64,000 nucleotides of DNA from Escherichia coli. Its GTDB lineage: Bacteria; Pseudomonadota; Gammaproteobacteria; Enterobacterales; Enterobacteriaceae. The notes beneath the pieces are model-generated. The model worked only from the letters and a program-made list of their open reading frames with translations, had not been told where the DNA came from and did not search any database. Shown here piece by piece: positions 30,867-62,916 of this stretch. Numbering within the stretch: position 1 is the first letter of the stretch; each line of letters starts with the position of its first letter. Position numbers and translations under genes: made by a program. The stretch lies in the NCBI RefSeq assembly GCF_009931435.1, contig NZ_CP043414.1; one strand, 5' to 3'.

Positions 30867-31300
30867 CAGTGTTTCTCCTTTCGCCCGCCAGAGTAAAAAG
30901 CAACCGTTTACGTTCATGAAACTGTTTAAACACATGCTCGTGGAGTGCCAGTTTTTGCAAGGAAGGGGAGTTAGAGACAGGAATTGCGGAGGCAATCACA
31001 TAATCGTGATTAAACTACGAAAATGAGAAGAGAACCAGACAGTGGAATTATCTGCAATTTTCTCATATTGATATTTTATTAATCATTCTGGCATGTAGCT
31101 CTCTCGCATTTAATCAAGTTTATCTGGATAGCTCTCTTTTGGACCTTGATGTTGAAATAATGAAAGCGGCACAGATTGAGGGGTAATAATTTGAACTTAG
31201 TCACAAACTTATAATTAAAAAGTCATTCTACCTAATATATGCCCGTTTATTGCATCGCGAACTTTGAGAAGACATAACTCATTAAATGAAAGGGATGCAA

Positions 31301-38046: not shown

Positions 38047-40917
38047 TTATATTTTTTCCAGCGCGGTGAGTATTTTCTCCGGTGTGAAATGCCATTCGCG
38101 TAACCAGATGCCGCAGGCATCGTGAATTGCGGTAGCAATCGCCGGAGCTGCGCCATTTACACCGATTTCTGAGATTGATTTCGCCCCGAATGGGCCGACT
38201 TTATCGTCGCTCGGCACCAGCACAGCGCGGAAATCACGCGGAATGTCACCAATTTTCGGTGCGCCGTAACTGCGTAAATCACGCGTTAACGGGTGGCCTT
38301 CGGCGTCATAAATGATTTCTTCGCTCATACTGTGCCCGATAGCACGCAGGGTGGCTCCGTAGATTTGTCCCAACGCTAACTCTGGATTGACCGGTGTACC
38401 ACAGTCCAGCAAGGCGTAGAATTTATCCAGGCGGATTTCACCCGTACGTGTGTTGACGGCAACTTCAGCAAAGTTTGCGCCATACGGGAAGGCGAAATCA
38501 GGCGTGATATAACTGGCAGTTCCCACCAGTGAACCAAAACCGGTGCCGGTTTCGCCTTTATGGGCAATATCCCCGAAACTAACTTCGCCTTTCTTGCCGC
38601 GCACGACGCCCGGCGTTGCTAGTTGAACATCTGCCACTGGCTCACCCAACATTTGCGCGCCGTGGAACAGAATTTTATCCCGCAGATTTTCCGCTGCCAA
38701 ACGCGCCGCGTTACCCGAGAAGCAAGTACCGGACGAGGCATATGCGCCTTTATCAAACAACGCATGATCGGTATCACCGGAGATAACATGCACGTCCTGC
38801 GGTGGGCAGTGCAGCACTTCTGCTGCCAGTTTCGTCACCACGGTATCCAGACCAGTACCAATATCCGCACCGCCAGAATGAACAATAAAGGTACCGTCCG
38901 ATTCCAGTTTAATCATGCAGTTAGCCTGATCGATATCCGGGATCCCCGATTTCTGCATGATAATGGCGACGCCGCGACCGATGTGCCAGTCACCATTTTG
39001 CGGTTTTGGTGAAGACCATTGGATCATCTCGCGACCCTGACGCAGGATCTCTTCCAGCGCGCAGCTGGCGGCGGAAGGAACGGAGGTCGGCGCTTTACCT
39101 TCACCAATCGCACCGAGAATTTTCAGCTCTTGCCCTTCGTGTACCCGGTTACGTTCGATAATTTCCAGTTGGTCGATCTGTAACTGTTCAGCCAGTTCCG
39201 CTAATGCCATAGTGATAGCGAAGTTACCTTTCGGTGCACCATAACCCTGATAAGCACCATTTGGACAAATGTTGCTGTAGTAGGTGGTGACCTGGAAATC
39301 GACGTTATCGCACGGATATAACGGCAGCGACAGCGCCGGTCCGTTACATGGTACGGTGAGTGAGTGATTGCCGTAAGGGCCTGTGTTGGCGCGGAAATCC
39401 ATCTTCACGGCCGTCAGGCGACCATCTTTCTTTGCCCCCAGTTTGACGGTGACTTTCGCGACGTGACGAGAGGTGTTAGCAATAAACTCTTCTTCACGGG
39501 TGTAGCGGAACAGTACCGGACGCCCGGTCACGCAGGTTGCCCAGGCGCACACTTCTTCCAGCAGGATGTCCTGTTTAGACCCAAAACCGCCGCCAACTCG
39601 CTCTTTAATTACATGAACTTTATGTTGTTTCATGCCCACGAGGCGCGCGACCTGGCGGCGTAAGTGCCATGGTACCTGGGTGGAGGCGTGGATAACCAGA
39701 CGATCGCCGTCCATACGGGTAAAGCATATATGAGTTTCAGTCGGGCACTGCTGCGCCTGCGTTGAGTTATAGGTTCGCTCAATGATCACATCGGCATCGG
39801 CAAAGCCTTTGTCCATATCGCCAATATGACCATGAATACTGGCGGCGATATTTTTACGGGGGCGAGAACCGATCGGGAAGTTGATGATCATATGCTCGCC
39901 GCGCTGGGCTGCATGGCTGTTATCGTCTTCCAGAGTATCTGGCGCACCAGCAACATACACCACCGGTTCATCGTGCACGACAGGCGCATCTTCCGCCATT
40001 GCCTCGTCAATCGACATTACAGGTTTAAGCACTTCATATTCAACGTCGATGAGCTTCAGTGCTTCGAGCGCAATTTCTTCACTTTCTGCGACGACCGCAG
40101 CAACGCGATCGCCGACGTGACGCATTTTCTTGCCGAACATACGGCGGTCAAGCGGTGACGGTTCCGGTGCGCTCTGACCACCCGGGGTGTAGTAGATATC
40201 CGGGCAATTCAGATGAGTAATAACGTGGACGACGCCTGGTAAGGCTTCAGCTTTGCTGACATCCAGGTGAGTAATCAGTGCGTGAGCGTGAGGGCTACGT
40301 AACATTTTAATGACGCAGGCGTCAGCCGTTACGCGGTCTTCAACATAGCAGGGTTTCGCCTGCACCATTTTTGCGGCATCAGTTTTAGGATAATGCTTAC
40401 CAATGACTTCAAGGTCATCGCGGAAAGTCGGAGCGATATCAATGGTGGCCTGCGGGTTATTTTTACGTGCAACCGCCAGTTCAATGACCTGATAGTATTG
40501 TTGCCAGCCTGCATCGCGACTGAACAAACCAGAAAGCGCGTCGTCGATCTCTTCGCGGGTCGGTGCGGCGATACGCTCGAGCAGATCAGTGATAATCAGA
40601 GCCGCAGCTGGATCGTTATAACCAGACTGCACCACGCCAACATCAACCATTGCCTGTTGAACCAGACTTAACTCGTTCCATTTGCCCAGAGACTCTGCGG
40701 TACGAATATCTGCCTTCTCTAACTGTGCGGCGATAAGCAAGGACGCGTTAACGATATTACCGTTAAAGATAATTGCGTCAGAACCGGCAAACCCGAATCC
40801 ATCATCGCTGTTGCGTACAGAGTGCATTCCCATGTTAAACAACAGCTTTTGCACGTTTTCGCCTGGATTAACGGTTAGCTCCTGAGGCGCGCCATTTAAA
40901 GTAAAGTGGATGATCAT
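38047..40917 (-). CDS. xdhD: Molybdenum-hydroxylase family protein with fused N-terminal 2Fe-2S domain and C-terminal molybdopterin domain (xanthine-dehydrogenase-like)
   Basis: Track ORF 956 aa; aldehyde oxidase/xanthine dehydrogenase family features. Confidence 0.88.
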   Translation of the reverse strand: MIIHFTLNGAPQELTVNPGENVQKLLFNMGMHSVRNSDDGFGFAGSDAIIFNGNIVNASLLIAAQLEKADIRTAESLGKWNELSLVQQAMVDVGVVQSGYNDPAAALIITDLLERIAAPTREEIDDALSGLFSRDAGWQQYYQVIELAVARKNNPQATIDIAPTFRDDLEVIGKHYPKTDAAKMVQAKPCYVEDRVTADACVIKMLRSPHAHALITHLDVSKAEALPGVVHVITHLNCPDIYYTPGGQSAPEPSPLDRRMFGKKMRHVGDRVAAVVAESEEIALEALKLIDVEYEVLKPVMSIDEAMAEDAPVVHDEPVVYVAGAPDTLEDDNSHAAQRGEHMIINFPIGSRPRKNIAASIHGHIGDMDKGFADADVIIERTYNSTQAQQCPTETHICFTRMDGDRLVIHASTQVPWHLRRQVARLVGMKQHKVHVIKERVGGGFGSKQDILLEEVCAWATCVTGRPVLFRYTREEEFIANTSRHVAKVTVKLGAKKDGRLTAVKMDFRANTGPYGNHSLTVPCNGPALSLPLYPCDNVDFQVTTYYSNICPNGAYQGYGAPKGNFAITMALAELAEQLQIDQLEIIERNRVHEGQELKILGAIGEGKAPTSVPSAASCALEEILRQGREMIQWSSPKPQNGDWHIGRGVAIIMQKSGIPDIDQANCMIKLESDGTFIVHSGGADIGTGLDTVVTKLAAEVLHCPPQDVHVISGDTDHALFDKGAYASSGTCFSGNAARLAAENLRDKILFHGAQMLGEPVADVQLATPGVVRGKKGEVSFGDIAHKGETGTGFGSLVGTASYITPDFAFPYGANFAEVAVNTRTGEIRLDKFYALLDCGTPVNPELALGQIYGATLRAIGHSMSEEIIYDAEGHPLTRDLRSYGAPKIGDIPRDFRAVLVPSDDKVGPFGAKSISEIGVNGAAPAIATAIHDACGIWLREWHFTPEKILTALEKI

Positions 40918-41743: not shown

Positions 41744-43072
41744 TTATGCCAGCGCATCCATCCGACGCCACATAGCAGCAGCGGCTTTTCTGGCTTGCGC
41801 ATAAATGGAATCGCAATCGAAGTTAAACTGACGGTCTTCATAGACCATAACGCCGTTGACCATCACGCTGTGGACGCTGCCTGAACCCATGCCGAAAGCG
41901 ATATGTCCAGCGATATTGTCTGCCAGCAGTGGCGTCGGCGAGTTGTAATCGCAAATGGTTAAATCGGCTTTATAACCGGTTTCCAGCAGGCCAAATTTCG
42001 CGCCAAAGTTGCGGCTCATCAGTTCGTTGCCGTTAGCCAGAGCTTTGGCAAAGCTGTCAGGCCACAGCGGACCACCCGCATCGCGATGTTTAAAGAAGGC
42101 AAATTTCATCTCTTCAAACATATCTGAACCAATACCGTCCGTACCCAACGCCAGATTGCGGATGTCGCAAAGATGATGGTTGTAGCCGACATGGTTGTTC
42201 ATGTTTGAACGGGCGTTATGCACCAGGAATGCATCACGCTGATTGAGCAACGCGATGTCGTCTTTAGACAGATAAAGCCCATGAGCGACCAGCGTTTTGC
42301 TGTCGATGAGATCGAATTGCGCTAATCGTGCCAGCAGATCTTTGCCGTACCAGTGATGACTATGGGAAACATCGTAAAGGTCTTCCGCAGCGTGAATATG
42401 TAAACCACGGCCTGTGGCTTTCACGGCCTCACGCAGCATTTCCAGACCGGCATCCGGCACAGTAAACGGCGCGTGAGCACCAATATGAGCCTCTACCAGA
42501 TACGGTTCAGTTGCCGCTTTCTTCGCATCATCAATCTGACGGGCGAAGCGGATATTTTCCTCTACTCCTTCCTGTAGTTCTTTAATGCCGTTGTTACGGT
42601 CAGTGGTTTCAAAACAGGTCATCGCACGCAGGCCAACTTTTAAAAATGCGTTGCGCAATGTGGAGAGCGACCCGCTGATATACGCCGGAGAGGCATGGTG
42701 ATCGATAACAGATGTACAGCCGCTCTTAATCGCTTCCAGTGAACAAATCAGCCCGCTGTAATAGAGCGACTCTTCATCAAGGGCGCGATCGAGCCGCCAC
42801 CAGAGATTTTTCAGCGTTGAAATGAAATCCGGGCAGGGGGCGATGTTTGCCATAATTCCACGGGAAAGCCCCGAGTAAAAATGGTTGTGCGAGCAGACAA
42901 TTCCCGGCATCACAATCCGACCATGCATCTCTTTGTAGTTGGCATCGGGGTAGCGTTGCGTCAGCGCATCGCCGATAGCGACAATCACATCATTTTCGAT
43001 GGCGATATCAACGCCTTCCTGCACTTTCGCCGGGTGTAACTGCACTGCGGTGACATTCTTCAGAATCAACAT
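41744..43072 (-). CDS. ssnA: Amidohydrolase-superfamily protein SsnA (chlorohydrolase/aminohydrolase-like)
   Basis: Track ORF 442 aa; HxH motif (CSHNHFYSG). Confidence 0.88.
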   Translation of the reverse strand: MLILKNVTAVQLHPAKVQEGVDIAIENDVIVAIGDALTQRYPDANYKEMHGRIVMPGIVCSHNHFYSGLSRGIMANIAPCPDFISTLKNLWWRLDRALDEESLYYSGLICSLEAIKSGCTSVIDHHASPAYISGSLSTLRNAFLKVGLRAMTCFETTDRNNGIKELQEGVEENIRFARQIDDAKKAATEPYLVEAHIGAHAPFTVPDAGLEMLREAVKATGRGLHIHAAEDLYDVSHSHHWYGKDLLARLAQFDLIDSKTLVAHGLYLSKDDIALLNQRDAFLVHNARSNMNNHVGYNHHLCDIRNLALGTDGIGSDMFEEMKFAFFKHRDAGGPLWPDSFAKALANGNELMSRNFGAKFGLLETGYKADLTICDYNSPTPLLADNIAGHIAFGMGSGSVHSVMVNGVMVYEDRQFNFDCDSIYAQARKAAAAMWRRMDALA

Positions 43073-46173: not shown

Positions 46174-46254
46174 AACCCTCTCCTTAGCTTATACAGATAT
46201 CATTGAGTGACCGGTGTTGAGAAATCCGGTGGTTTAGGGGGATAGAGCAACAAT

Positions 46255-46271
46255 CGCACCACTCTTGCCAG
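46255..46271 (-). promoter_or_regulatory. Candidate sigma54-like promoter upstream of ygfK: minus strand CTGGCAAGAGTGGTGCG (GG-N10-GC)
   Basis: Read directly; ~85 nt upstream of ygfK ATG; -12 element GTGC deviates from TTGC. Confidence 0.35.
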
Positions 46272-46494
46272 GTTTGGCGGGAAATATAAAAAAATGTGAG
46301 GCGGCTCGAAACTTAAGGGCTTTTTGTGAATGAACTCACAGGTGCCAAATGAGAATTAAAATCACTCCTGGGAATTATTATTACCAGCCCATTTATCACT
46401 TTTTCTCTTTTCTCAAAATCAGTGATTCCTTATCATAATGATAAAGCAGGCTGGATGGTTTAAATATTTGAACGCAAACGTTTAACTACGTTTT

Positions 46495-47175: not shown

Positions 47176-47946
47176 GTGAAAAGTATAGTTGACCCATCGG
47201 CATTATTCATTGATTTAGGCGCGCAGAAACGCCCCACTGTGATTTCTGTTGTTGGGGCTGGGGGGAAAACCAGCTTGCTTTTTTGGCTGGCAGAACTGCT
47301 CCAGGCTAGCGGCAGGCGTGTGTTAATCACTACGACGACACATATGTTTATGCCAACGTCTCACTGGCCCGTGGTTTTCTGTCGTGATCCCGCCATGCTT
47401 CCTCATACGTCTCTTACATCCCCCATTTCATTTTGTTTTCACAGCTGGAAAGCGAACCAGGGAAAAGTGCAGGGATTTATGCCAGAAGCGATTGATGCAC
47501 TGGTGCAACGACCAGAGTGTGACGTAATTCTCATTGAGGCAGATGGCTCGCGTGGAATGCCGTTAAAAGCGCCTGATGAGCACGAACCTTGCATACCCAA
47601 AAGCAGTTGCTGCGTGATTGCTGTGATGGGAGGACATATTTTGGGTGCGAAAGTGAGCACAGAAAATGTCCATCGCTGGTCGCAGTTTGCTGATATTACC
47701 GGGTTAACACCTGATGCAACCTTGCAACTGAGCGATCTCGTTGCGCTGGTTCGCCACCCTCAGGGCGCATTTAAAAACGTACCGCAAGGTTGTCGGCGAG
47801 TCTGGTTCATTAACCGTTTTTCTCAATGTGAGAATGCGATTGCGCAAAGCGAGCTCCTTCAACCGCTGCAACAACACGACGTAGAGGCAATCTGGCTGGG
47901 CGATATACAAGAACATCCTGCAATCGCGCGCAGATTTGTGAATTAG
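47176..47946 (+). CDS. yqeC: Selenium-dependent hydroxylase accessory protein YqeC family (GTG start)
   Basis: Track ORF 256 aa; P-loop-like VVGAGGKTS. Confidence 0.85.
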   Translation: MKSIVDPSALFIDLGAQKRPTVISVVGAGGKTSLLFWLAELLQASGRRVLITTTTHMFMPTSHWPVVFCRDPAMLPHTSLTSPISFCFHSWKANQGKVQGFMPEAIDALVQRPECDVILIEADGSRGMPLKAPDEHEPCIPKSSCCVIAVMGGHILGAKVSTENVHRWSQFADITGLTPDATLQLSDLVALVRHPQGAFKNVPQGCRRVWFINRFSQCENAIAQSELLQPLQQHDVEAIWLGDIQEHPAIARRFVN

Positions 47947-53346: not shown

Positions 53347-54543
53347 TTAAGGTGCTACAGAGTGTTTGCCTTCCCAGACAACTTCGCGGTAGTGCTTCAC
53401 GTCGGTGTCGCCTTCAGTGCTGATAACCAGCACCACTGCATCTTTGTTCAGCGCTAGTTTTTCCATCAGGCTTTGACGTTGCGGGTGATAATGAACCGCC
53501 GCGAGAACGCCCAAACCGACAGCGCCGGATTCACCGGAGATGATGCGCGGGTCGTTGCCGTACGGATTACCCAGCACGCGCATACCTAATGCGGCAACGC
53601 TGTCCTGGCAGGAGATGAATTGGGTGGCGCAGTTACGTAGGATTTCCCAGCCCAGTGGGTTAGGTTCGCCGCAAGCCAGGCCCGCCATGATAGTGGCCAT
53701 ATCGCCGCCAACGTTGACGATGTCGCCTTTGACACCAGAACGATAGATACAGTCAGCTTTGTCAGGTTCAACAATAATGCTGTGCAGGTTTTGCGGGCTG
53801 TAGACGTCGACCAGATAACCCAGTACGCCGCCGGCCATCGCGCCGACACCGGCTTGCAGCAGAACGTGAGTTGGGGTTACGCCCATTTCACGCATTTGCT
53901 CGACGGCTTCATCTGCCAGAGTGGCATAGCCCTGCATGATCCAGGTTGGGATTTTGGTGTAGCCTTCCCAGGCGGTATCTTGCACCACTTCCCAGCCGTG
54001 TTGCTGCGCGTGTTGCATGGTCAGGCGAACGGTATCGTCATAGTTCATATCAGTGACGATGCACTCGGCTCCGAGGTTCAGAATGGCGTCAACGCGTTCC
54101 TGAGCGGAACCTTTCGGCATGTAAATTACCGCGTTCTGACCGAGTTGCTGTGCTGCCCAGGCAACACCGCGCCCGTGGTTGCCGTCGGTCGTTGTAGCAA
54201 ATGTCATTTTTTCGCCGATGGCATTTTTCAGATGCTCGAATGACAGTGTTTCGATATCAAGATGATATTTTTCGCACAACAACTGAGCGATGGCATATGC
54301 GCCGCCGAGCATTTTGAATGCGTTCAGACCGAATCGTTTTGATTCGTCCTTAACGAGAATTTTTTTCACCCCAAAAAGGTTTGCGAGATCGTCCAGCGCG
54401 CAAAGTGGTGTTGGGCGATAGCCAGCAATTTTCTGGTGGAACTGGCGCGCCAGTTTTGCCTGGCTTTGCGAAAAGAGCGGTGATGTTTCGCCGTTGAAAA
54501 ATTTGTTATCGGCGATATCAATCTTCAATGAGAAAACGGACAT
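53347..54543 (-). CDS. dpaL: PLP-dependent diaminopropionate ammonia-lyase
   Basis: Track ORF 398 aa; recognised YgeX/DpaL sequence. Confidence 0.88.
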   Translation of the reverse strand: MSVFSLKIDIADNKFFNGETSPLFSQSQAKLARQFHQKIAGYRPTPLCALDDLANLFGVKKILVKDESKRFGLNAFKMLGGAYAIAQLLCEKYHLDIETLSFEHLKNAIGEKMTFATTTDGNHGRGVAWAAQQLGQNAVIYMPKGSAQERVDAILNLGAECIVTDMNYDDTVRLTMQHAQQHGWEVVQDTAWEGYTKIPTWIMQGYATLADEAVEQMREMGVTPTHVLLQAGVGAMAGGVLGYLVDVYSPQNLHSIIVEPDKADCIYRSGVKGDIVNVGGDMATIMAGLACGEPNPLGWEILRNCATQFISCQDSVAALGMRVLGNPYGNDPRIISGESGAVGLGVLAAVHYHPQRQSLMEKLALNKDAVVLVISTEGDTDVKHYREVVWEGKHSVAP

Positions 54544-54601: not shown

Positions 54602-55792
54602 TTATTTCACGCGTTCTTGCGCTTCTTTCAGCAGTTGTTCGAGCAGTGCGCCTGGTTTGGAATATTTACGGGAAAGGATCATTGCTGCGATGATGTATGG
54701 CTTCCAGCTGGCTTCTTTGTAGGTCGCGATACGGTATTTTTCGAATACGCCTTCAGTGACTTCACCTTCTTTGCAGGATACGCCGCTGATATCTGCTGGC
54801 AGGCAGTGCATGTACAGGGCTTCGCCATCACGGGTCAGTTCCATCATCTCTTCAGTGCAATGCCAGTCTTTGTGTTGCGCGTTCTGTGCCAGACACTGTT
54901 TTTCCAGTGCTTTTAAGCCTTCGTGATCGTTCGCACGCAGCAGTTCAGTACGCTCTTCCATCACTTTGTAAGGTGCCCATGACTTCGGATAAACGATGTC
55001 TGCGTCTTTGAAGGCTTCTTCCATGCTGGTGACCTGACGGAAGCTACCGCCAGAGGCTTTAGCATTATTTTTAGCTACTTCAACTACATCCGGGATCAAA
55101 TCGTAGCCTTCCGGATGGGCCAGGGTGACATCCATACCGAAGCGGGTCATCAGGCCGATAATGCCTTGCGGTACAGAGAGCGGTTTGCCGTAGCTTGGCG
55201 AGTATGCCCAAGTCATGGCGATTTTTTTACCTTTCAGGTTTTCGAGCGAACCAAAGTGTTCACGCAACCATGCCAGGTCAGCCATTGACTGAGTCGGATG
55301 GTCGATATCGCATTGTAGGTTCACTAAAGCCGGACGCTGTGGAAGCACGCCCTGCTTGTAGCCGTCATCAAGCGCAGCGCCAACTTCACGCATATAGGCG
55401 TTACCTGCGCCCAGATACATATCGTCACGAATACCAATAGCGTCGGCGCAGAAGGAGATCATATTGGCGGTTTCACGTACGGTTTCGCCGTGAGCGATTT
55501 GTGATTTGCCTTCGTCGAGATCTTGCTGTGCAAGGCCGAGCAGGTTAAGCGCGGAAGCATAAGAGAAGCGGGTACGGGTGGAGTTGTCGCGGAATACGGA
55601 AATACCTAATCCACTATTAAAGACTTTGGTTGAGATGTTTTCAGCACGCAGTGCTTTTAATGCTGCGGCAACGTCCAGTACTTGTTTCAGTTCATCAGGC
55701 GTCTGTTCCCACGTTAACAAAAAATCTTTCTCGTGAAGGTGAGAGGTCAGCGAATTGATATCCTTAATCAGCTCATTAACAGTTTTCATCAT
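54602..55792 (-). CDS. ygeW: Knotted carbamoyltransferase YgeW (ATCase/OTCase fold)
   Basis: Track ORF 396 aa; carbamoyl-phosphate-binding STRTR motif. Confidence 0.88.
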   Translation of the reverse strand: MMKTVNELIKDINSLTSHLHEKDFLLTWEQTPDELKQVLDVAAALKALRAENISTKVFNSGLGISVFRDNSTRTRFSYASALNLLGLAQQDLDEGKSQIAHGETVRETANMISFCADAIGIRDDMYLGAGNAYMREVGAALDDGYKQGVLPQRPALVNLQCDIDHPTQSMADLAWLREHFGSLENLKGKKIAMTWAYSPSYGKPLSVPQGIIGLMTRFGMDVTLAHPEGYDLIPDVVEVAKNNAKASGGSFRQVTSMEEAFKDADIVYPKSWAPYKVMEERTELLRANDHEGLKALEKQCLAQNAQHKDWHCTEEMMELTRDGEALYMHCLPADISGVSCKEGEVTEGVFEKYRIATYKEASWKPYIIAAMILSRKYSKPGALLEQLLKEAQERVK

Positions 55793-55882: not shown

Positions 55883-55899
55883 AACAATAAGTGTGCCAG
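55883..55899 (-). promoter_or_regulatory. Candidate sigma54-like promoter upstream of ygeW: minus strand CTGGCACACTTATTGTT (perfect TGGCAC, -12 TTGT)
   Basis: Read directly; ~95 nt upstream of ygeW ATG; -12 GC replaced by GT. Confidence 0.3.
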
Positions 55900-56267
55900 A
55901 ATTATCCACACGGCTATAAAAGACTAATTTGACGGGTAATGTGTGGTGTAGATCACAAATTGATGCCAGCTTCCGGTTGTGTGTAAAATACGAAAACGTT
56001 TGGCTTTTTTTATTGCGTTGTTTATTTGCTGCTAAGTATCAGAAATAAGATAAAGGGGCAGGCTATCCCTCGTCAGTTTGATAAACTCACCGCTGTAATT
56101 CTCATATTGATATAGAAATGTGATATCTCTTCCATAATTTCATTAGAAAGTGATAAAAACCTTATGTTTTTATCAAAGCCAATTTCGCCTGAGTTAATAT
56201 CATGATGATCTGTGAACCATCAACGTCTTCAATGATCGACTTTTAAGTAAGTCTGGAAGGTAAAGCT

Positions 56268-58046
56268 ATGGAGCTTGCTACTACGCAGTCAGTATTGATG
56301 CAAATTCAACCGACAATTCAGCGTTTTGCCAGAATGCTTGCCAGCGTTTTGCAGCTTGAGGTTGAGATCGTTGATGAAAACTTGTGTCGCGTCGCCGGAA
56401 CGGGCGCGTATGGGAAGTTTCTTGGCCGCCAGTTGAGCGGCAACTCACGCCTGCTCCGCCACGTCCTGGAAACGAAAACTGAAAAAGTTGTGACACAGTC
56501 TCGCTTCGATCCCCTTTGCGAAGGTTGCGATAATAAAGATAATTGTCGCGAAAAAGCATTTCTGGGTACGCCTGTCATTTTACAGGATCGTTGTGTTGGG
56601 GTGATAAGTTTGATTGCAGTTACCCACGAGCAACAAGAACATATCAGTGATAATTTACGCGAGTTTTCTGATTACGTTCGCCATATATCCACCATTTTTG
56701 TTTCGAAACTTCTGGAGGATCAGGGACCAGGAGATAACATCAGTAAAATATTCGCGACCATGATCGATAATATGGATCAGGGCGTATTAGTTGTTGATGA
56801 CGATAATCGGGTTCAGTTTGTTAATCAGACGGCCTTAAAAACACTCGGTGTTGTGCAAAATAATATTATTGGGAAACCTATCCGTTTCAGACCATTAACA
56901 TTTGAGAGTAATTTTACCCACGGACATATGCAACATATTGTTTCGTGGGACGATAAAAGTGAATTAATCATTGGCCAATTGCATAACATTCAGGGCAGAC
57001 AATTATTTTTAATGGCGTTTCACCAATCGCATACCAGTTTTTCTGTAGCAAATGCACCTGATGAACCGCATATTGAACAATTGGTTGGCGAGTGCCGTGT
57101 TATGCGGCAATTAAAACGACTCATTAGCCGTATTGCGCCCAGCCCATCCAGCGTTATGGTGGTTGGTGAAAGCGGCACGGGTAAAGAAGTCGTCGCGCGT
57201 GCAATCCATAAGTTGAGTGGAAGACGAAATAAACCCTTTATTGCTATCAACTGTGCCGCGATTCCTGAACAACTTCTGGAGAGCGAACTATTCGGTTATG
57301 TTAAAGGCGCATTTACTGGCGCTTCAGCCAACGGTAAAACAGGGTTGATTCAGGCGGCGAATACGGGCACGCTGTTTCTCGATGAAATTGGTGATATGCC
57401 ATTAATGTTGCAGGCTAAATTACTGCGCGCTATTGAGGCGCGTGAAATACTGCCGATTGGTGCCAGTAGCCCAATTCAGGTCGACATCCGAATCATTTCT
57501 GCAACTAACCAGAATTTGGCCCAGTTCATTGCCGAAGGTAAATTCCGCGAAGATCTCTTCTACCGACTCAATGTTATCCCGATCACTCTTCCACCGCTGC
57601 GTGAACGTCAGGAAGATATTGAACTGCTGGTACATTACTTTTTACATCTGCATACCCGTCGTCTGGGATCGGTTTATCCTGGCATTGCTCCCGATGTCGT
57701 CGAGATATTGCGTAAGCATCGTTGGCCCGGAAACCTGCGCGAGTTAAGCAATTTAATGGAATATCTGGTTAACGTTGTTCCTTCAGGTGAAGTTATCGAC
57801 AGCACGCTATTGCCTCCAAATTTGCTGAATAATGGCACAACGGAGCAAAGTGATGTAACAGAGGTCAGCGAGGCGCACTTGGCACTCGATGATGCGGGCG
57901 GCACGGCGCTGGAGGAGATGGAAAAGCAAATGATCCGCGAGGCGCTTTCACGTCATAGCAGCAAGAAGCAAGTTGCTGATGAACTGGGTATCGGCATTGC
58001 TACGCTCTATCGCAAGATAAAGAAATATGAGTTGTTAAACGCATAA
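56268..58046 (+). CDS. ygeV: Sigma54-dependent transcriptional activator (bacterial enhancer-binding protein) with N-terminal sensor region, AAA+ domain and C-terminal HTH
   Basis: Track ORF 592 aa; Walker A GESGTGKE, GAFTGA sigma54-contact motif, C-terminal HTH. Confidence 0.9.
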   Translation: MELATTQSVLMQIQPTIQRFARMLASVLQLEVEIVDENLCRVAGTGAYGKFLGRQLSGNSRLLRHVLETKTEKVVTQSRFDPLCEGCDNKDNCREKAFLGTPVILQDRCVGVISLIAVTHEQQEHISDNLREFSDYVRHISTIFVSKLLEDQGPGDNISKIFATMIDNMDQGVLVVDDDNRVQFVNQTALKTLGVVQNNIIGKPIRFRPLTFESNFTHGHMQHIVSWDDKSELIIGQLHNIQGRQLFLMAFHQSHTSFSVANAPDEPHIEQLVGECRVMRQLKRLISRIAPSPSSVMVVGESGTGKEVVARAIHKLSGRRNKPFIAINCAAIPEQLLESELFGYVKGAFTGASANGKTGLIQAANTGTLFLDEIGDMPLMLQAKLLRAIEAREILPIGASSPIQVDIRIISATNQNLAQFIAEGKFREDLFYRLNVIPITLPPLRERQEDIELLVHYFLHLHTRRLGSVYPGIAPDVVEILRKHRWPGNLRELSNLMEYLVNVVPSGEVIDSTLLPPNLLNNGTTEQSDVTEVSEAHLALDDAGGTALEEMEKQMIREALSRHSSKKQVADELGIGIATLYRKIKKYELLNA

Positions 58047-59450: not shown

Positions 59451-61709
59451 TCAAATCAATCCTGCCAGATGGAACTCTTCATATAACCGTTTTGGCGTCA
59501 GCGGCAGTGTATTGATTGCAACACCGGTAGCCATTTTCACCGCGTTACGAATAGCAGCGGCAACAGGAATTATTGGTGGCTCACCCAGTGACTTATGTCC
59601 GTATGCGGATTGCGGCTCATTGATTTCGACGAACGCGCTTTCCAGTTGTGGCAGATCTGGCATGGTCGGCATTTTGTAATCCAGCAGATTGGGGTTACGG
59701 ACCACGCCGCTTTTCGCATCGATGATCATTTCTTCAAATAGCGCCCAGCCAATGCCCATCCCCATTCCGCCGTGTACCTGACCTTCTGCCAGCAACGGAT
59801 TAAGAATATGACCCGAATCATGAACGTTGAGGATGCGGTTGATGGTGACTTTGCACAGCGCAATATCGACCGTCAGATCAACAAAGGTACAGCCAAATGC
59901 TGGTGGGTTAGTGGTGGTTTTGATGGAGCTTTCGGCAGAGAGCTGCCCGCCGCGTTCAGGGTGGTAGAAAGCGTCCATCGCCAAATCTTTTAACGACAAT
60001 AACGATTCTTCCGGTCGTTCAACCAGCACGATATGGCCTTTTATTAGGGTCAGATTCATCGCTGACTGATGTAGCATGACAGCGGCGTGAGCGATGATTT
60101 TTTCTTTTAATAACAGTGCCGCACTGCGCAATGCAGGCGCGGCAACATAGCTCTGGCGTGAGGCAAATGCGCCGGGATCGAACGGCGTAACGTCGGTATC
60201 TTGTGTTGAAATAACGCGAACGTCGCTGACCGGAACCCCTACGGTTTCTGCCACCATTTGCGAGAACACGGTGTCGGCACCCTGGCCGATTTCCGTCGCG
60301 CCGCTTTGCACATTGATGGTTCCATCCTGATTCATCAGAAGGCGCGCGCCGGCTATTTCTACGCCGACAGGCCAGGTGTTAGAGGTGTAGCTAAAACAGG
60401 CGACGCCAACGCCGCGGCGTAAATTGCCTTGCTGGTTCTGGCATTCTGCACGGCGTTTTTCCCATTCAAAGATTTTCCGGCCTTTTTCAAGACACTCCGG
60501 CAACCCTGCGCTGTAAATACGTTTGCCCGTGAGCGGATTAGCATCTCCTTCGCGGGCGGCGTTGCGTAAACGAATTTCAATAGGATCAATATTTAACGCT
60601 GTCGCGGCGTCATCAAGCATTGACTCAACGGCAAATACGACTTGTGGCGCGCCATAACCGCGCATCGCTCCAGCCGAGGGGAGGTTGGTATAAAAGGTCT
60701 TTGAACTGTAAGCGTAGGCACAACGAGGATAAAGGTAAGCGACTTTATTCCCGCCCGCAGAAGCGATGGAGTGCCCGTGAGATGCATAAGCGCCTGTGTT
60801 AGACAGAACATCCAGACTATAGCCTTTCAACGTTCCGTCTCGGTTTACGCCCATTTGCCCGTCAATAGTAAAAGCGTGGCGGGTACGGGTTGCGAGGAAA
60901 CACTCTTCACGGCTAAGGGAAACTTTCACCGGAATGCCGCCGAGCTTGCTGGTCAGAAAAGCCGCCATGGGCTCTTCCAGCACATCCTGTTTATTACCAA
61001 AACCGCCACCGACAAACGGTTTGATGACTCGTACGCATGACCAGGGAATACCCAGCGCCTGACCAACCACGCGGCGAACAATGTGCGGGATCTGGGTGCT
61101 GGAAACGATGGTAATTCGAGAGTCATCCTCCATCCATGCCAGCGATGTCACGCTTTCCATATGACAATGTTGAATAACGGGAGTCTGATAGTGCCCCTGC
61201 ACCTGGTAATCGGCGGCATCGATTGTTTGTTGGACATTACCCGTCGACATCGAGCTTTGTTTTAGTAAATTGCCGCCGTTATGGATTGGTGCAGCGTCAT
61301 CTGCCAGCGCCGCTTCTGGCGTGGTGATAACGGGTAATTCTTGCCACTCAATGCTGACCAATTGCGCCGCTTTTTCTGCCGTGAGTTCATCACGGGCCAC
61401 GACGATGGCAACGGCGTCACCATGATGACGAACATGGCGAGTTAGCAGTGCGCGATCGGCGGTATCGCGCTTGTTTTCGTCAAGTGTCCAGGCATGCCCA
61501 GCTGTAGCGAATGGGATATCAGGTACATCTTCCCAGGTAAAAATTGCCAGTACGCCTGGTAAACTTCTGGCTTGTTCATCATTAATACTTACGGCATAAC
61601 CATGTGCGATAGGGCTACGTACATATTTCGCGTAACACATGCCCGCCATAACATAATCGTCAGTATATCGTGCCCGCCCAGTGACCTTAGCAATGGCATC
61701 GACGCGCAT
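59451..61709 (-). CDS. xdhA: Xanthine dehydrogenase molybdenum-binding subunit
   Basis: Track ORF 59451..61748; recognised start MRVDAIAKVTGRARYTDDY at internal ATG; 752 aa. Confidence 0.9.
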   Translation of the reverse strand: MRVDAIAKVTGRARYTDDYVMAGMCYAKYVRSPIAHGYAVSINDEQARSLPGVLAIFTWEDVPDIPFATAGHAWTLDENKRDTADRALLTRHVRHHGDAVAIVVARDELTAEKAAQLVSIEWQELPVITTPEAALADDAAPIHNGGNLLKQSSMSTGNVQQTIDAADYQVQGHYQTPVIQHCHMESVTSLAWMEDDSRITIVSSTQIPHIVRRVVGQALGIPWSCVRVIKPFVGGGFGNKQDVLEEPMAAFLTSKLGGIPVKVSLSREECFLATRTRHAFTIDGQMGVNRDGTLKGYSLDVLSNTGAYASHGHSIASAGGNKVAYLYPRCAYAYSSKTFYTNLPSAGAMRGYGAPQVVFAVESMLDDAATALNIDPIEIRLRNAAREGDANPLTGKRIYSAGLPECLEKGRKIFEWEKRRAECQNQQGNLRRGVGVACFSYTSNTWPVGVEIAGARLLMNQDGTINVQSGATEIGQGADTVFSQMVAETVGVPVSDVRVISTQDTDVTPFDPGAFASRQSYVAAPALRSAALLLKEKIIAHAAVMLHQSAMNLTLIKGHIVLVERPEESLLSLKDLAMDAFYHPERGGQLSAESSIKTTTNPPAFGCTFVDLTVDIALCKVTINRILNVHDSGHILNPLLAEGQVHGGMGMGIGWALFEEMIIDAKSGVVRNPNLLDYKMPTMPDLPQLESAFVEINEPQSAYGHKSLGEPPIIPVAAAIRNAVKMATGVAINTLPLTPKRLYEEFHLAGLI

Positions 61710-61802
61710 GCATGATTCACCCGTAGCGGTTGCTTCCCGCGCTTCCATAGAAATCCCCTCGATTTGAACATTTGGTTCTTATGGCAAAGATTTAGTCTAA
61801 GC

Positions 61803-61819
61803 AGGCAAGATTTACGCCA
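61803..61819 (-). promoter_or_regulatory. Candidate sigma54 promoter for xdhABC: minus strand CTGGCGTAAATCTTGCC (TGGC-N8-TTGC spacing exact)
   Basis: Read directly: reverse complement of ggcaagatttacgccag; ~90 nt upstream of xdhA ATG; sigma54 EBP gene ygeV adjacent. Confidence 0.5.
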
Positions 61820-62163
61820 GAAACGACGATAAACGTTAGGGGAGGAAGGAAGTGTGATGACGTTAAAAAAATACAGATACGATACGAAACAGGACCCTGA
61901 ATAGGGACAGTGATACGTATCAATATGAGTGGCGATAAAATCAATGTGATAAATCAGGATTATTACGCATCAGGATGGGAAATAGGGTAAAAGAGTCAGG
62001 AACTTCGATACCACCACAGCAAATATTTTGCTTATGATACTTCCCTTTGCCAAATGAAATTAATCTCTTTCTCAATTACCTCGTTTTTCCAGAAGCGAGA
62101 GATTGGGTATCCAGAGGCTGGCTGCTATGATATGGCGTCTTGTTTTTTAAGCGAGGAAAGATT

Positions 62164-62916
62164 TTGAGTGCGGGACGCCTGAATAAAAAATCTCTGGGTA
62201 TCGTGATGTTGTTATCGGTTGGACTGCTTATGGCGGGCTGTTCGGGTAGCAAATCATCCGATACAGGAACGTATTCCGGCTCCGTTTACACCGTGAAACG
62301 GGGGGATACGCTATATCGTATTTCGCGCACCACGGGAACCAGCGTAAAAGAGCTGGCGCGGCTGAACGGCATTTCCCCCCCTTACACCATTGAAGTTGGT
62401 CAGAAACTAAAACTGGGTGGGGCGAAAAGTAGCAGTACACGTAAATCAACCGCCAAATCAACGACCAAAACCGCATCGGTTACACCGTCATCAGCAGTAC
62501 CAAAATCTTCCTGGCCGCCAGTAGGGCAACGTTGTTGGTTATGGCCAACGACAGGGAAAGTTATCATGCCGTATTCGACAGCTGATGGCGGCAATAAAGG
62601 GATTGATATCTCAGCTCCACGGGGTACACCTATTTACGCCGCGGGTGCAGGAAAGGTGGTGTATGTGGGCAACCAGCTGCGTGGCTACGGTAATCTCATC
62701 ATGATTAAACACAGTGAAGATTACATTACGGCTTACGCCCATAATGACACGATGCTGGTAAATAATGGGCAAAGCGTGAAGGCTGGGCAAAAAATCGCCA
62801 CTATGGGGAGCACTGATGCGGCATCGGTTCGCCTGCATTTCCAGATTCGTTACCGTGCAACGGCAATTGATCCGCTACGTTACTTGCCGCCTCAGGGCAG
62901 CAAGCCAAAATGCTGA
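62164..62916 (+). CDS. ygeR: LysM-domain / M23 (LytM) peptidase-family lipoprotein
   Basis: Track ORF 62140..62916; likely TTG start giving (M)SAGRLNKKSLGIVMLLSVGLLMAGCSGS lipobox; LysM motif YTVKRGDTLYRISR; M23 C-terminal domain. Start codon uncertain (62140 or 62164). Confidence 0.85.
   Translation: MSAGRLNKKSLGIVMLLSVGLLMAGCSGSKSSDTGTYSGSVYTVKRGDTLYRISRTTGTSVKELARLNGISPPYTIEVGQKLKLGGAKSSSTRKSTAKSTTKTASVTPSSAVPKSSWPPVGQRCWLWPTTGKVIMPYSTADGGNKGIDISAPRGTPIYAAGAGKVVYVGNQLRGYGNLIMIKHSEDYITAYAHNDTMLVNNGQSVKAGQKIATMGSTDAASVRLHFQIRYRATAIDPLRYLPPQGSKPKC

Follow-up and report, generated by a model that had tools for sequence, protein, structure and literature searches.

How is transcription of the xdhABC operon controlled in Escherichia coli, and through which bases does its activator act? 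We addressed this question in a 64,000-nucleotide stretch of an E. coli chromosome (hereafter the window), which carries the purine/uric-acid cluster actS–xdhABC–ygeV–ygeW…ygfT–uacT, reversed relative to K-12. The xdhB and xdhC genes lie on the minus strand together with xdhA, and actS starts near 62164. A sequence-only reading of this stretch had proposed an enhancer-dependent sigma-54 promoter upstream of xdhA, with a perfect 12-bp palindrome, a GATAC tandem and TGATAAATCA as enhancer elements. Our analysis makes it likely that xdhABC is controlled from the region 61793-61952, through a sigma-54 promoter that is activated by YgeV from two boxes, A and B (Table 1). The enhancer is most likely this pair of boxes, which resemble the predicted sites of the clostridial regulator DioR, and not the palindrome. 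The promoter and the proposed link to YgeV are both already in the literature; the assignment of the boxes to YgeV is probably new, as a modest, testable addition drawn from sequence comparison.

The 1.1 kb around the control region comprises xdhA and actS and is found at 95-99% identity in 5,411 of 5,426 complete E. coli genomes. The intergenic region upstream of xdhA is 100% identical in strain R32_14_1F and 95.7% identical in K-12, and an Rfam scan of 61500-62300 gave no match. Conservation among strains, as used below, refers to an alignment of this intergenic region from nine E. coli strains, in which ~12% of the columns are variable.

The sigma-54 promoter itself was confirmed by several lines of evidence. 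As the sequence-only reading had it, TGGCGT-N5-TTGC with exact sigma-54 spacing is present on the minus strand, where 61819->61805 reads TGGCGTAAATCTTGC with the GG-N10-GC spacing of the sigma-54 consensus. The element agrees with TGGCACG-N4-TTGCW at 11 of the 13 specified positions, and both GG and GC are present. The count of the pattern alone is at chance level (TGGC-N7-TTGC occurs 5 times in the window vs 4.9 expected). When the window was scored with an independent weight matrix for sigma-54, derived from 15 other E. coli motifs found by chromatin immunoprecipitation sequencing (ChIP-seq), the xdhA element ranked fifth among ~128,000 window positions, with 13.4 bits. Its GG and GC dinucleotides are invariant in all nine strains, and variation is confined to the spacer. 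By the rule of Bonocora 2015, which counts 19 bp downstream from the centre of the motif, transcription is predicted to start at ~61793, 45 nt upstream of the ATG at 61748 and 84 nt upstream of the ATG at 61709. The promoter is thus placed in intergenic DNA, points at xdhA and gives a short 5' untranslated region.

The same site had been found experimentally. The sigma-54 ChIP-seq site OS29 upstream of xdhA is CTGGCGTAAATCTTGCC (FAT 11, PSSM 10.9) and is flagged 'C', for experimentally confirmed in EcoCyc (Bonocora 2015, Table 1, PMC4591121); the same paper cites a microarray study in which xdhA was among the putative sigma-54 promoters. This 17-mer is present exactly in the window and in K-12 DH1. 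Because it is identical to the published ChIP-seq site, the xdhA promoter is real and already documented, and there is nothing new in the promoter itself. Compared with the K-12 promoter (EcoCyc; OS29, PMC4591121), the 17-mer, its orientation and the 84-nt distance to the older K-12 start codon, which agrees with the published table, are all the same; the only difference is the ~4% divergence of the surrounding intergenic region. A 2025 survey of the sigma-54 regulon mentions neither xdh nor ygeV, and a Reg-Seq preprint has xdhA among its targets and gives no result on it in the text.

Two further features were seen around this promoter. The CT-rich tract CTTCCTTCCTCCCCT (61838-61852, minus strand), just upstream, is complementary to the xdhA Shine-Dalgarno sequence GAGGGGA (61754-61760, minus strand) and pairs with it in the minimum free energy fold of a hypothetical read-through RNA. 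This resembles an 'insulator' described at sigma-54 promoters (bioRxiv 086108); the fold, however, was no better than those of shuffled sequences (z = -0.57) and was rejected. A sigma-70-like promoter, TTGGCA-17-CAAAAT, lies at 62025-62053 (minus strand), ~230 bp upstream of the sigma-54 start and directed toward xdhA; part of it falls within a 31-bp block without variation in the nine strains, and it might give rise to read-through transcripts or serve xdhA as a second promoter.

We then searched the window for potential activator sites with a 19-mer matrix made from the predicted clostridial DioR sites (Nie 2019) and the Sedimentibacter and Propionigenium sites described below, with no E. 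coli sites included. Its top five matches (31058, 56097, 47818, 46428 and 61936) adjoin ChIP-mapped sigma-54 sites, namely those of ygfT, ygeW, yqeC, ygfK and xdhA, respectively. The boxes lie upstream of the sigma-54 sites at xdhA, ygeW, ygfK and ygfT, and downstream of the one in yqeC. Matches of at least 14 bits numbered 5 in the window vs 0.34 in first-order Markov simulations, and the core TATCANNNTGATA with at most one mismatch was found 7 times vs 1.35 expected. In K-12, the matrix gave the same ranking and all box sites are conserved.

At xdhA, box A is the fifth best match in the window (14.1 bits). It has two mismatches to the 15-mer TTATCA-N3-TGATAA and one to the core TATCANNNTGATA, and is also found in K-12. 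Box B has two mismatches in the 13-mer core and ranks sixth in the window with a matrix of that core; its full 19-mer score is poor (-3.7) because its GC-rich flanks do not match. It holds the 12-mer CTCATATTGATA (61918-61929), a TTATCA-N3-TGATAA box with a degenerate left arm (cTCA-TAT-TGATA), which is the most frequent 12-mer in the window. Three of its four exact copies are in regulatory intergenic regions: upstream of xdhA, between ygeV and ygeW (56101) and between uacT and ygfT (31062). The fourth, in ygeY (53040), is a coding coincidence, since it encodes AHIDT of an M20 peptidase and is synonymously changed in K-12. Similarly, the 9-mer ATATTGATA occurs 7 times in the window vs 0.38 expected. 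A distance of 21 bp, or two helical turns, separates the centres of boxes A and B and so puts both on the same face of the DNA. This fits the arrangement taken as typical of such activating sequences, with several sites spaced by 15-21 bp and most of them 100-250 bp upstream of the promoter; the published clostridial sites are comparable in spacing and in distance to the promoter. Both boxes and the palindrome lie inside the 46-bp run ATTTATCACATTGATTTTATCGCCACTCATATTGATACGTATCACT, the longest invariant block of the nine-strain alignment.

Table 1. Positions of the genes, promoters, boxes and repeats of the window
Feature	Position	Strand	Remarks
xdhA coding sequence, first gene of xdhABC	59451..61748	-	PGAP start 61748; older K-12 start (752 residues) = 61709
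ygeV coding sequence	56268..58046	+	Pfam domains; 100% identity to E. coli YgeV
sigma-54 -24/-12 element CTGGCGTAAATCTTGCC of xdhABC	61804..61820	-	GG at 61818-61817, GC at 61806-61805
candidate YgeV (DioR-type) box A	61938..61952		minus strand TTATCAcatTGATtt; centre 61945, ~-152
candidate YgeV box B	61917..61931		minus strand caCTCAtatTGATAc; centre 61924, ~-131
palindrome TGATACGTATCA	61911..61922		good arm of box B (61917-61922) plus extra TGATAC half-site (61911-61916)
tandem GATACGATAC	61876..61885		lineage-specific
DioR-type box TTCTCATATTGATAT, ygeV-ygeW intergenic	56099..56113		19.0 bits, second best; ~-234 from ygeW start
ygeW sigma-54 promoter	55883-55899	-	17-mer = ChIP site OS30
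perfect box TTATCATAATGATAA upstream of ygfK	46430..46444		~-202 from ygfK start
ygfK sigma-54 promoter	46246-46262	-	= ChIP site OS31
box TTCTCATATTGATAT, uacT-ygfT intergenic	31060..31074		22.6 bits, best in window; ~-198 from ygfT start
ygfT sigma-54 promoter	31238-31254	+	= ChIP site OS32
box TTCTCAATGTGAGAA inside yqeC	47820-47834		17.1 bits, third best in window
yqeC-internal sigma-54 promoter (PyqeC) for yqeB	47577-47593	+	box TTCTCAATGTGAGAA ~223 bp downstream of start
sigma-54-like CTGGCACTCCACGAGCA	30935-30951	-	perfect TGGCAC at -24, GC at -12; ~58 nt upstream of uacT; conserved in K-12

The other boxes of the cluster stand at promoters that were known beforehand. The sigma-54 sites for ygeW, ygfK and ygfT are listed in Table 1 of Bonocora 2015 (PMC4591121), and the promoter for yqeB inside yqeC was validated by mutation (Table 2 of the same paper); all four are present in the window. 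The 15-mer TTATCATAATGATAA upstream of ygfK recurs without change in one of the C. botulinum DioR sites of Nie 2019. Boxes of this type stand ~200-235 bp upstream of the ygeW, ygfK and ygfT promoters and upstream of a candidate uacT promoter. The yqeC box may be an enhancer that acts from downstream; no GG-N10-GC element was seen between it and yqeB. The uacT–ygfT box lies at ~-143 from the candidate uacT promoter, and this single box may serve the divergent ygfT and uacT promoters. Neither uacT nor ygfU is named in the main text of Bonocora 2015 (PMC4591121). A perfect core box, TATCAAGATGATA, was also seen inside ygeX/dpaL (54255-54267); it is conserved in K-12 and could act as an enhancer within the gene or be a coincidence of the coding sequence.

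The candidate activator is encoded next to the operon. YgeV has Pfam matches to PAS (162-205), Sigma54_activat (272-439, E = 2e-70), AAA_lid_14 and HTH_8 (548-587), whereas Pfam found no receiver domain, the sensory part being PAS and possibly GAF. That YgeV is the only sigma-54 enhancer-binding protein of the window, as had been noted from the sequence, was borne out: across the six-frame translation, the GAFTGA motif (codons at 57306) is found in YgeV alone. YgeV matches, at 100% identity, an E. coli sequence found on 708 contigs, and a protein search returned only E. coli variants at 99-100% identity. Its connection with xdhABC is already a standing hypothesis, because PRECISE-1K places xdhABC in the YgeV iModulon and notes sigma-54 promoters there (PMC10602906). 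An earlier study cited in that work found lowered ygfT expression in a ygeV mutant. YgeV has previously been tied to uric acid use, ethanol stress and indole, and the paper on IsrR (YgeV) appeared without binding data.

To what extent is this arrangement shared with distant relatives? Among the matches listed from a scan of a genome collection, YgeV-like genes with 37-39% identity over their full length were found. In a Clostridium metagenome-assembled genome such a gene lies beside homologues of xdhABC and ygeY, in Sedimentibacter beside homologues of ygeX-ygeW-ygeY-ygfK-yqeA-ssnA, and in Propionigenium beside those of ygeX, ygeY, ssnA and hyuA (all by tblastn). The YgeV-like genes of Sedimentibacter, Propionigenium and Ruthenibacterium adjoin ygeX/ygeW/ygeY/ssnA homologues with canonical sigma-54 promoters; TTGGCACAAGTTTTGCT, TTGGCATAAAAATTGCT and TTGGCACAGGGATTGCT are such promoters in the intergenic regions of the relatives. 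In Sedimentibacter and Propionigenium, tandem TTATCA-N3-TGATAA palindromes such as TTATCAATATGATAA, TTATCATATTGATAA and TTATCAAATTGATAA lie upstream, 19-21 bp apart. Four of five distant relatives share the HTH segment LGIGIATLYRKI with YgeV unchanged.

These palindromes correspond to a motif that had been predicted in Clostridiales. Nie 2019 (PMC6615313, Table S3) lists upstream activating sequences for DioR, for example ATTTATCATAATGATAAGG in C. botulinum and AATTCTCGTATTGATAAAA in C. difficile, which precede sigma-54 promoters of dpaL, ygeW-ygfK-ssnA-ygeY, yqeB/yqeC and hyp-xdhABC. The sigma-54-driven hyp-xdhABC operon with such a site is found in C. botulinum. The function of the DioR regulon was given as unknown and YgeV was not mentioned. 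The E. coli cluster shares with this system the TTATCA-N3-TGATAA repeat, including TTCTC[A/G]-N3-TGATAA variants as in C. difficile; the location of the sites, ~100-235 bp upstream of TGGCA-N6-TTGC-type promoters; the targets xdhABC, ygeW-ygfK-ssnA-ygeY, dpaL/ygeX, yqeB/yqeC and a purine permease; and the domain plan of the regulator. It differs in the identity of only 37-39% between E. coli YgeV and the relatives compared and in the degeneracy of the xdhA boxes, and the clostridial motif is itself a prediction from comparative genomics. We give about even chances to the broader proposal that YgeV and the clostridial and fusobacterial DioR-like regulators represent one ancient regulon, in which TTATCA-N3-TGATAA and the uric-acid/purine catabolic genes have been kept across three phyla.

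A YgeV paralogue with 38% identity was also observed in Citrobacter werkmanii (locus L002, 9580-10030), divergent from ygeX- and ygeY-like genes. There, a sigma-54-like CTGGTAAGCATTTTGCT is accompanied by TTATCA/TGATAA half-sites at unusual spacings (N7 and N4), and the locus may represent an enterobacterial sister regulon that has diverged.

A mechanism can be proposed for xdhA. Sigma-54 RNA polymerase would reside in a closed complex on CTGGCGTAAATCTTGCC, where published ChIP-seq located sigma-54 (PMC4591121). YgeV, a PAS/AAA+/HTH_8 protein encoded ~3.7 kb away, would be the activator, and in response to a presumed inducing signal it would bind the two inverted repeats TTATCA-N3-TGATAA centred at ~-152 and ~-131. 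After oligomerising on the boxes, it would loop to the promoter and open it by ATP hydrolysis. Together, the boxes at xdhA, ygeW, ygfK, ygfT/uacT and yqeC would wire one purine/uric-acid catabolic regulon. The tandem NtrC sites of glnAp2 are similar: there too, two dyads that share one face of the helix precede a -24/-12 promoter by ~100-150 bp. The activator at the glnAp2 enhancer is an AAA+ protein with a Fis-type HTH. The recognition sequence is a different one, however, and xdhA has no IHF-like site. YgeV is also not a two-component response regulator, because it has PAS (possibly GAF) instead of a receiver domain. The T7 tract at 61864-61870 might provide intrinsic bending.

Several observations weigh against activation by YgeV from boxes A and B. 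Of all boxes in the set, those at xdhA are the weakest by matrix score, and the threshold of the 13-mer core that admits both is reached ~3.9 times by chance per simulated window. At such diversity, an invariant block of 46 bp exceeds the expected length only modestly (estimated P ~0.1). Between 61820 and 61916 no IHF-like WATCAANNNNTTR site with at most one mismatch was found. Because the TLYRK helix is common among bacterial enhancer-binding proteins, invariance of the HTH segment is weak evidence. No orthologue of YgeV from Citrobacter, Klebsiella or Salmonella was among the matches listed, in which the only relatives have at most 39% identity, and the listed matches likewise held no orthologous region at intermediate distance (Citrobacter, Klebsiella). 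In the Clostridium metagenome-assembled genome, no sigma-54 promoter could be recognised in front of xdhA, which comes after the YgeV-like gene. Finally, the searchable literature holds no electrophoretic mobility shift assay, footprint or ChIP for YgeV or DioR. The sole match to the IHF pattern with at most one mismatch overlaps box A. Readings of box A as an IHF site and, in a comparison by eye, as a DnaA box were both rejected.

Which other factors could use these sequences? The palindrome with its flanks, TTGATACGTATCAC (61910-61923), fits the FNR consensus TTGAT-N4-ATCAA at 9 of 10 positions and is invariant in the nine strains. The pathway runs anaerobically, and the palindrome with its flanks could be an FNR site that confers anaerobic control on xdhABC. 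FNR would then act either as a co-regulator of the sigma-54 promoter or from a class II site at a distinct sigma-70 promoter with its start near 61872-61875, for which there is a -10-like hexamer downstream (TATCGT at 61884-61879 here, TATCAT in K-12). In a review-style statement, a 2024 paper does credit a 2003 microarray study with the finding that FNR controls xdhABC. Yet boxes equally close to the consensus number 5 in the window vs 3.1 expected, the centre of this one is near -44.5 from the candidate -10 and not at the canonical class II position of -41.5, and a promoter scan gave no sigma-70 match at that hexamer. Moreover, xdhA is absent from the main text and supplementary tables seen of the FNR ChIP-seq study (Myers 2013). 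A resemblance to FNR sites is to be expected in any case, because the arms of the YgeV box, TGATA/TATCA, overlap the FNR half-sites TTGAT/ATCAA. We therefore regard control by FNR as unlikely.

Still less probable, in our estimate, is the version of the sequence-only reading, in which YgeV recognises the palindrome TGATACGTATCA itself, aided by the GATAC tandem and TGATAAATCA. All three elements exist: the palindrome is exact, perfect and invariant in the nine strains, the tandem is present, and TGATAAATCA is found at 61947-61956, one base from the 61946-61955 at which it had been placed. The palindrome lies 92 bp upstream of the -24 element, close to the ~95 bp proposed, and its TGATA/TATCA half-sites are those of the family motif. 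However, perfect 12-bp palindromes occur at the chance rate (18 in the window vs ~16 expected from 64,000 x 4^-6), and TGATACGTATCA has no copy with at most one mismatch elsewhere in the window, including the co-regulated, YgeV-linked promoters of the cluster. The repeated unit there is TATCA-N3-TGATA, in the opposite register; this spacing is kept across phyla, while the outer-arm distance between neighbouring boxes varies from 2 bp at E. coli xdhA to 6 and 8 bp at loci L003 and L010. What forms the palindrome is one arm of box B together with the extra half-site directly next to it. Eight of the nine E. coli strains, including K-12 and O157, have GTATCATATC (minus strand) in place of the GATAC tandem, which is probably not functional as a repeat, judging from this alignment. 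The outer, left TGAT arm of TGATAAATCA also varies among strains (TAAT or CAAT). The enhancer-dependent architecture that had been proposed thus stands as far as the ChIP-seq-mapped sigma-54 promoter, a candidate enhancer ~100-130 bp upstream and YgeV as the likely activator by its iModulon are concerned, whereas the enhancer elements named were mostly wrong in register or are not conserved. A genuine sigma-54 site could also depend on a different enhancer-binding protein, for example on NtrC when nitrogen is limiting, or be mostly silent and poised, with the boxes bound by another factor or by nothing. Most sigma-54 sites are indeed transcriptionally inactive in standard conditions, the yqeC-internal promoter is induced by nitrogen limitation (Bonocora 2015, PMC4591121), and an NtrC peak from genomic SELEX lies in xdhB-xdhC. 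This explanation is improbable to a similar degree: boxes of this type are found together with YgeV-like genes and operons for purine catabolism in three phyla, xdhABC shares its iModulon with the other operons that carry boxes (PMC10602906), and no NtrC-type TGCACC-N5-GGTGCA was seen on reading 61820-62160, a reading by eye and not a pattern search for NtrC sites.

Activation by YgeV from boxes A and B would have consequences beyond xdhABC. In E. coli, the xdh–yge–ygf cluster represents a gene set of gut bacteria that was shown in work of 2022-2025 to degrade uric acid anaerobically, and the ygeV–ygeW intergenic region has been re-engineered by one group for a urate-lowering probiotic. No binding site for YgeV is published in the searchable literature, where DioR-type boxes as putative YgeV operators in the E. 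coli cluster also appear to be unpublished. If correct, the boxes would provide the first defined operator for the regulator of this 'uricase-compensating' gene cluster, the validated yqeC-internal promoter would be activated from ~223 bp downstream, and one box would act on both ygfT and uacT. The assignment names exact bases, suggests a coherent regulon of six promoters and ties E. coli to a clostridial regulon for which no function was listed in 2019.

Other potential inputs were seen at the promoters of the cluster. In the mocA-ygfK spacer, AACGCAAACGTTTAAC (46471-46486, plus strand) resembles a PurR operator (consensus ACGCAAACGTTTGCGT); if it is a PurR site, it would suggest a purine-repressor input at ygfK. 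A CRP-like box, TGTGATCTACACCACA (55942-55957, minus strand), lies ~45-60 bp upstream of the -24 element of ygeW, in agreement with the native Crp site in the ygeV-ygeW spacer mentioned in the paper on the urate-lowering probiotic. High-scoring sigma-54-like elements were also found in sense orientation within xdhD, ssnA and ygeW (38467-38483, 42318-42334 and 54876-54892, respectively, all on the minus strand), and fit the intragenic sigma-54 binding described by Bonocora 2015 (PMC4591121).

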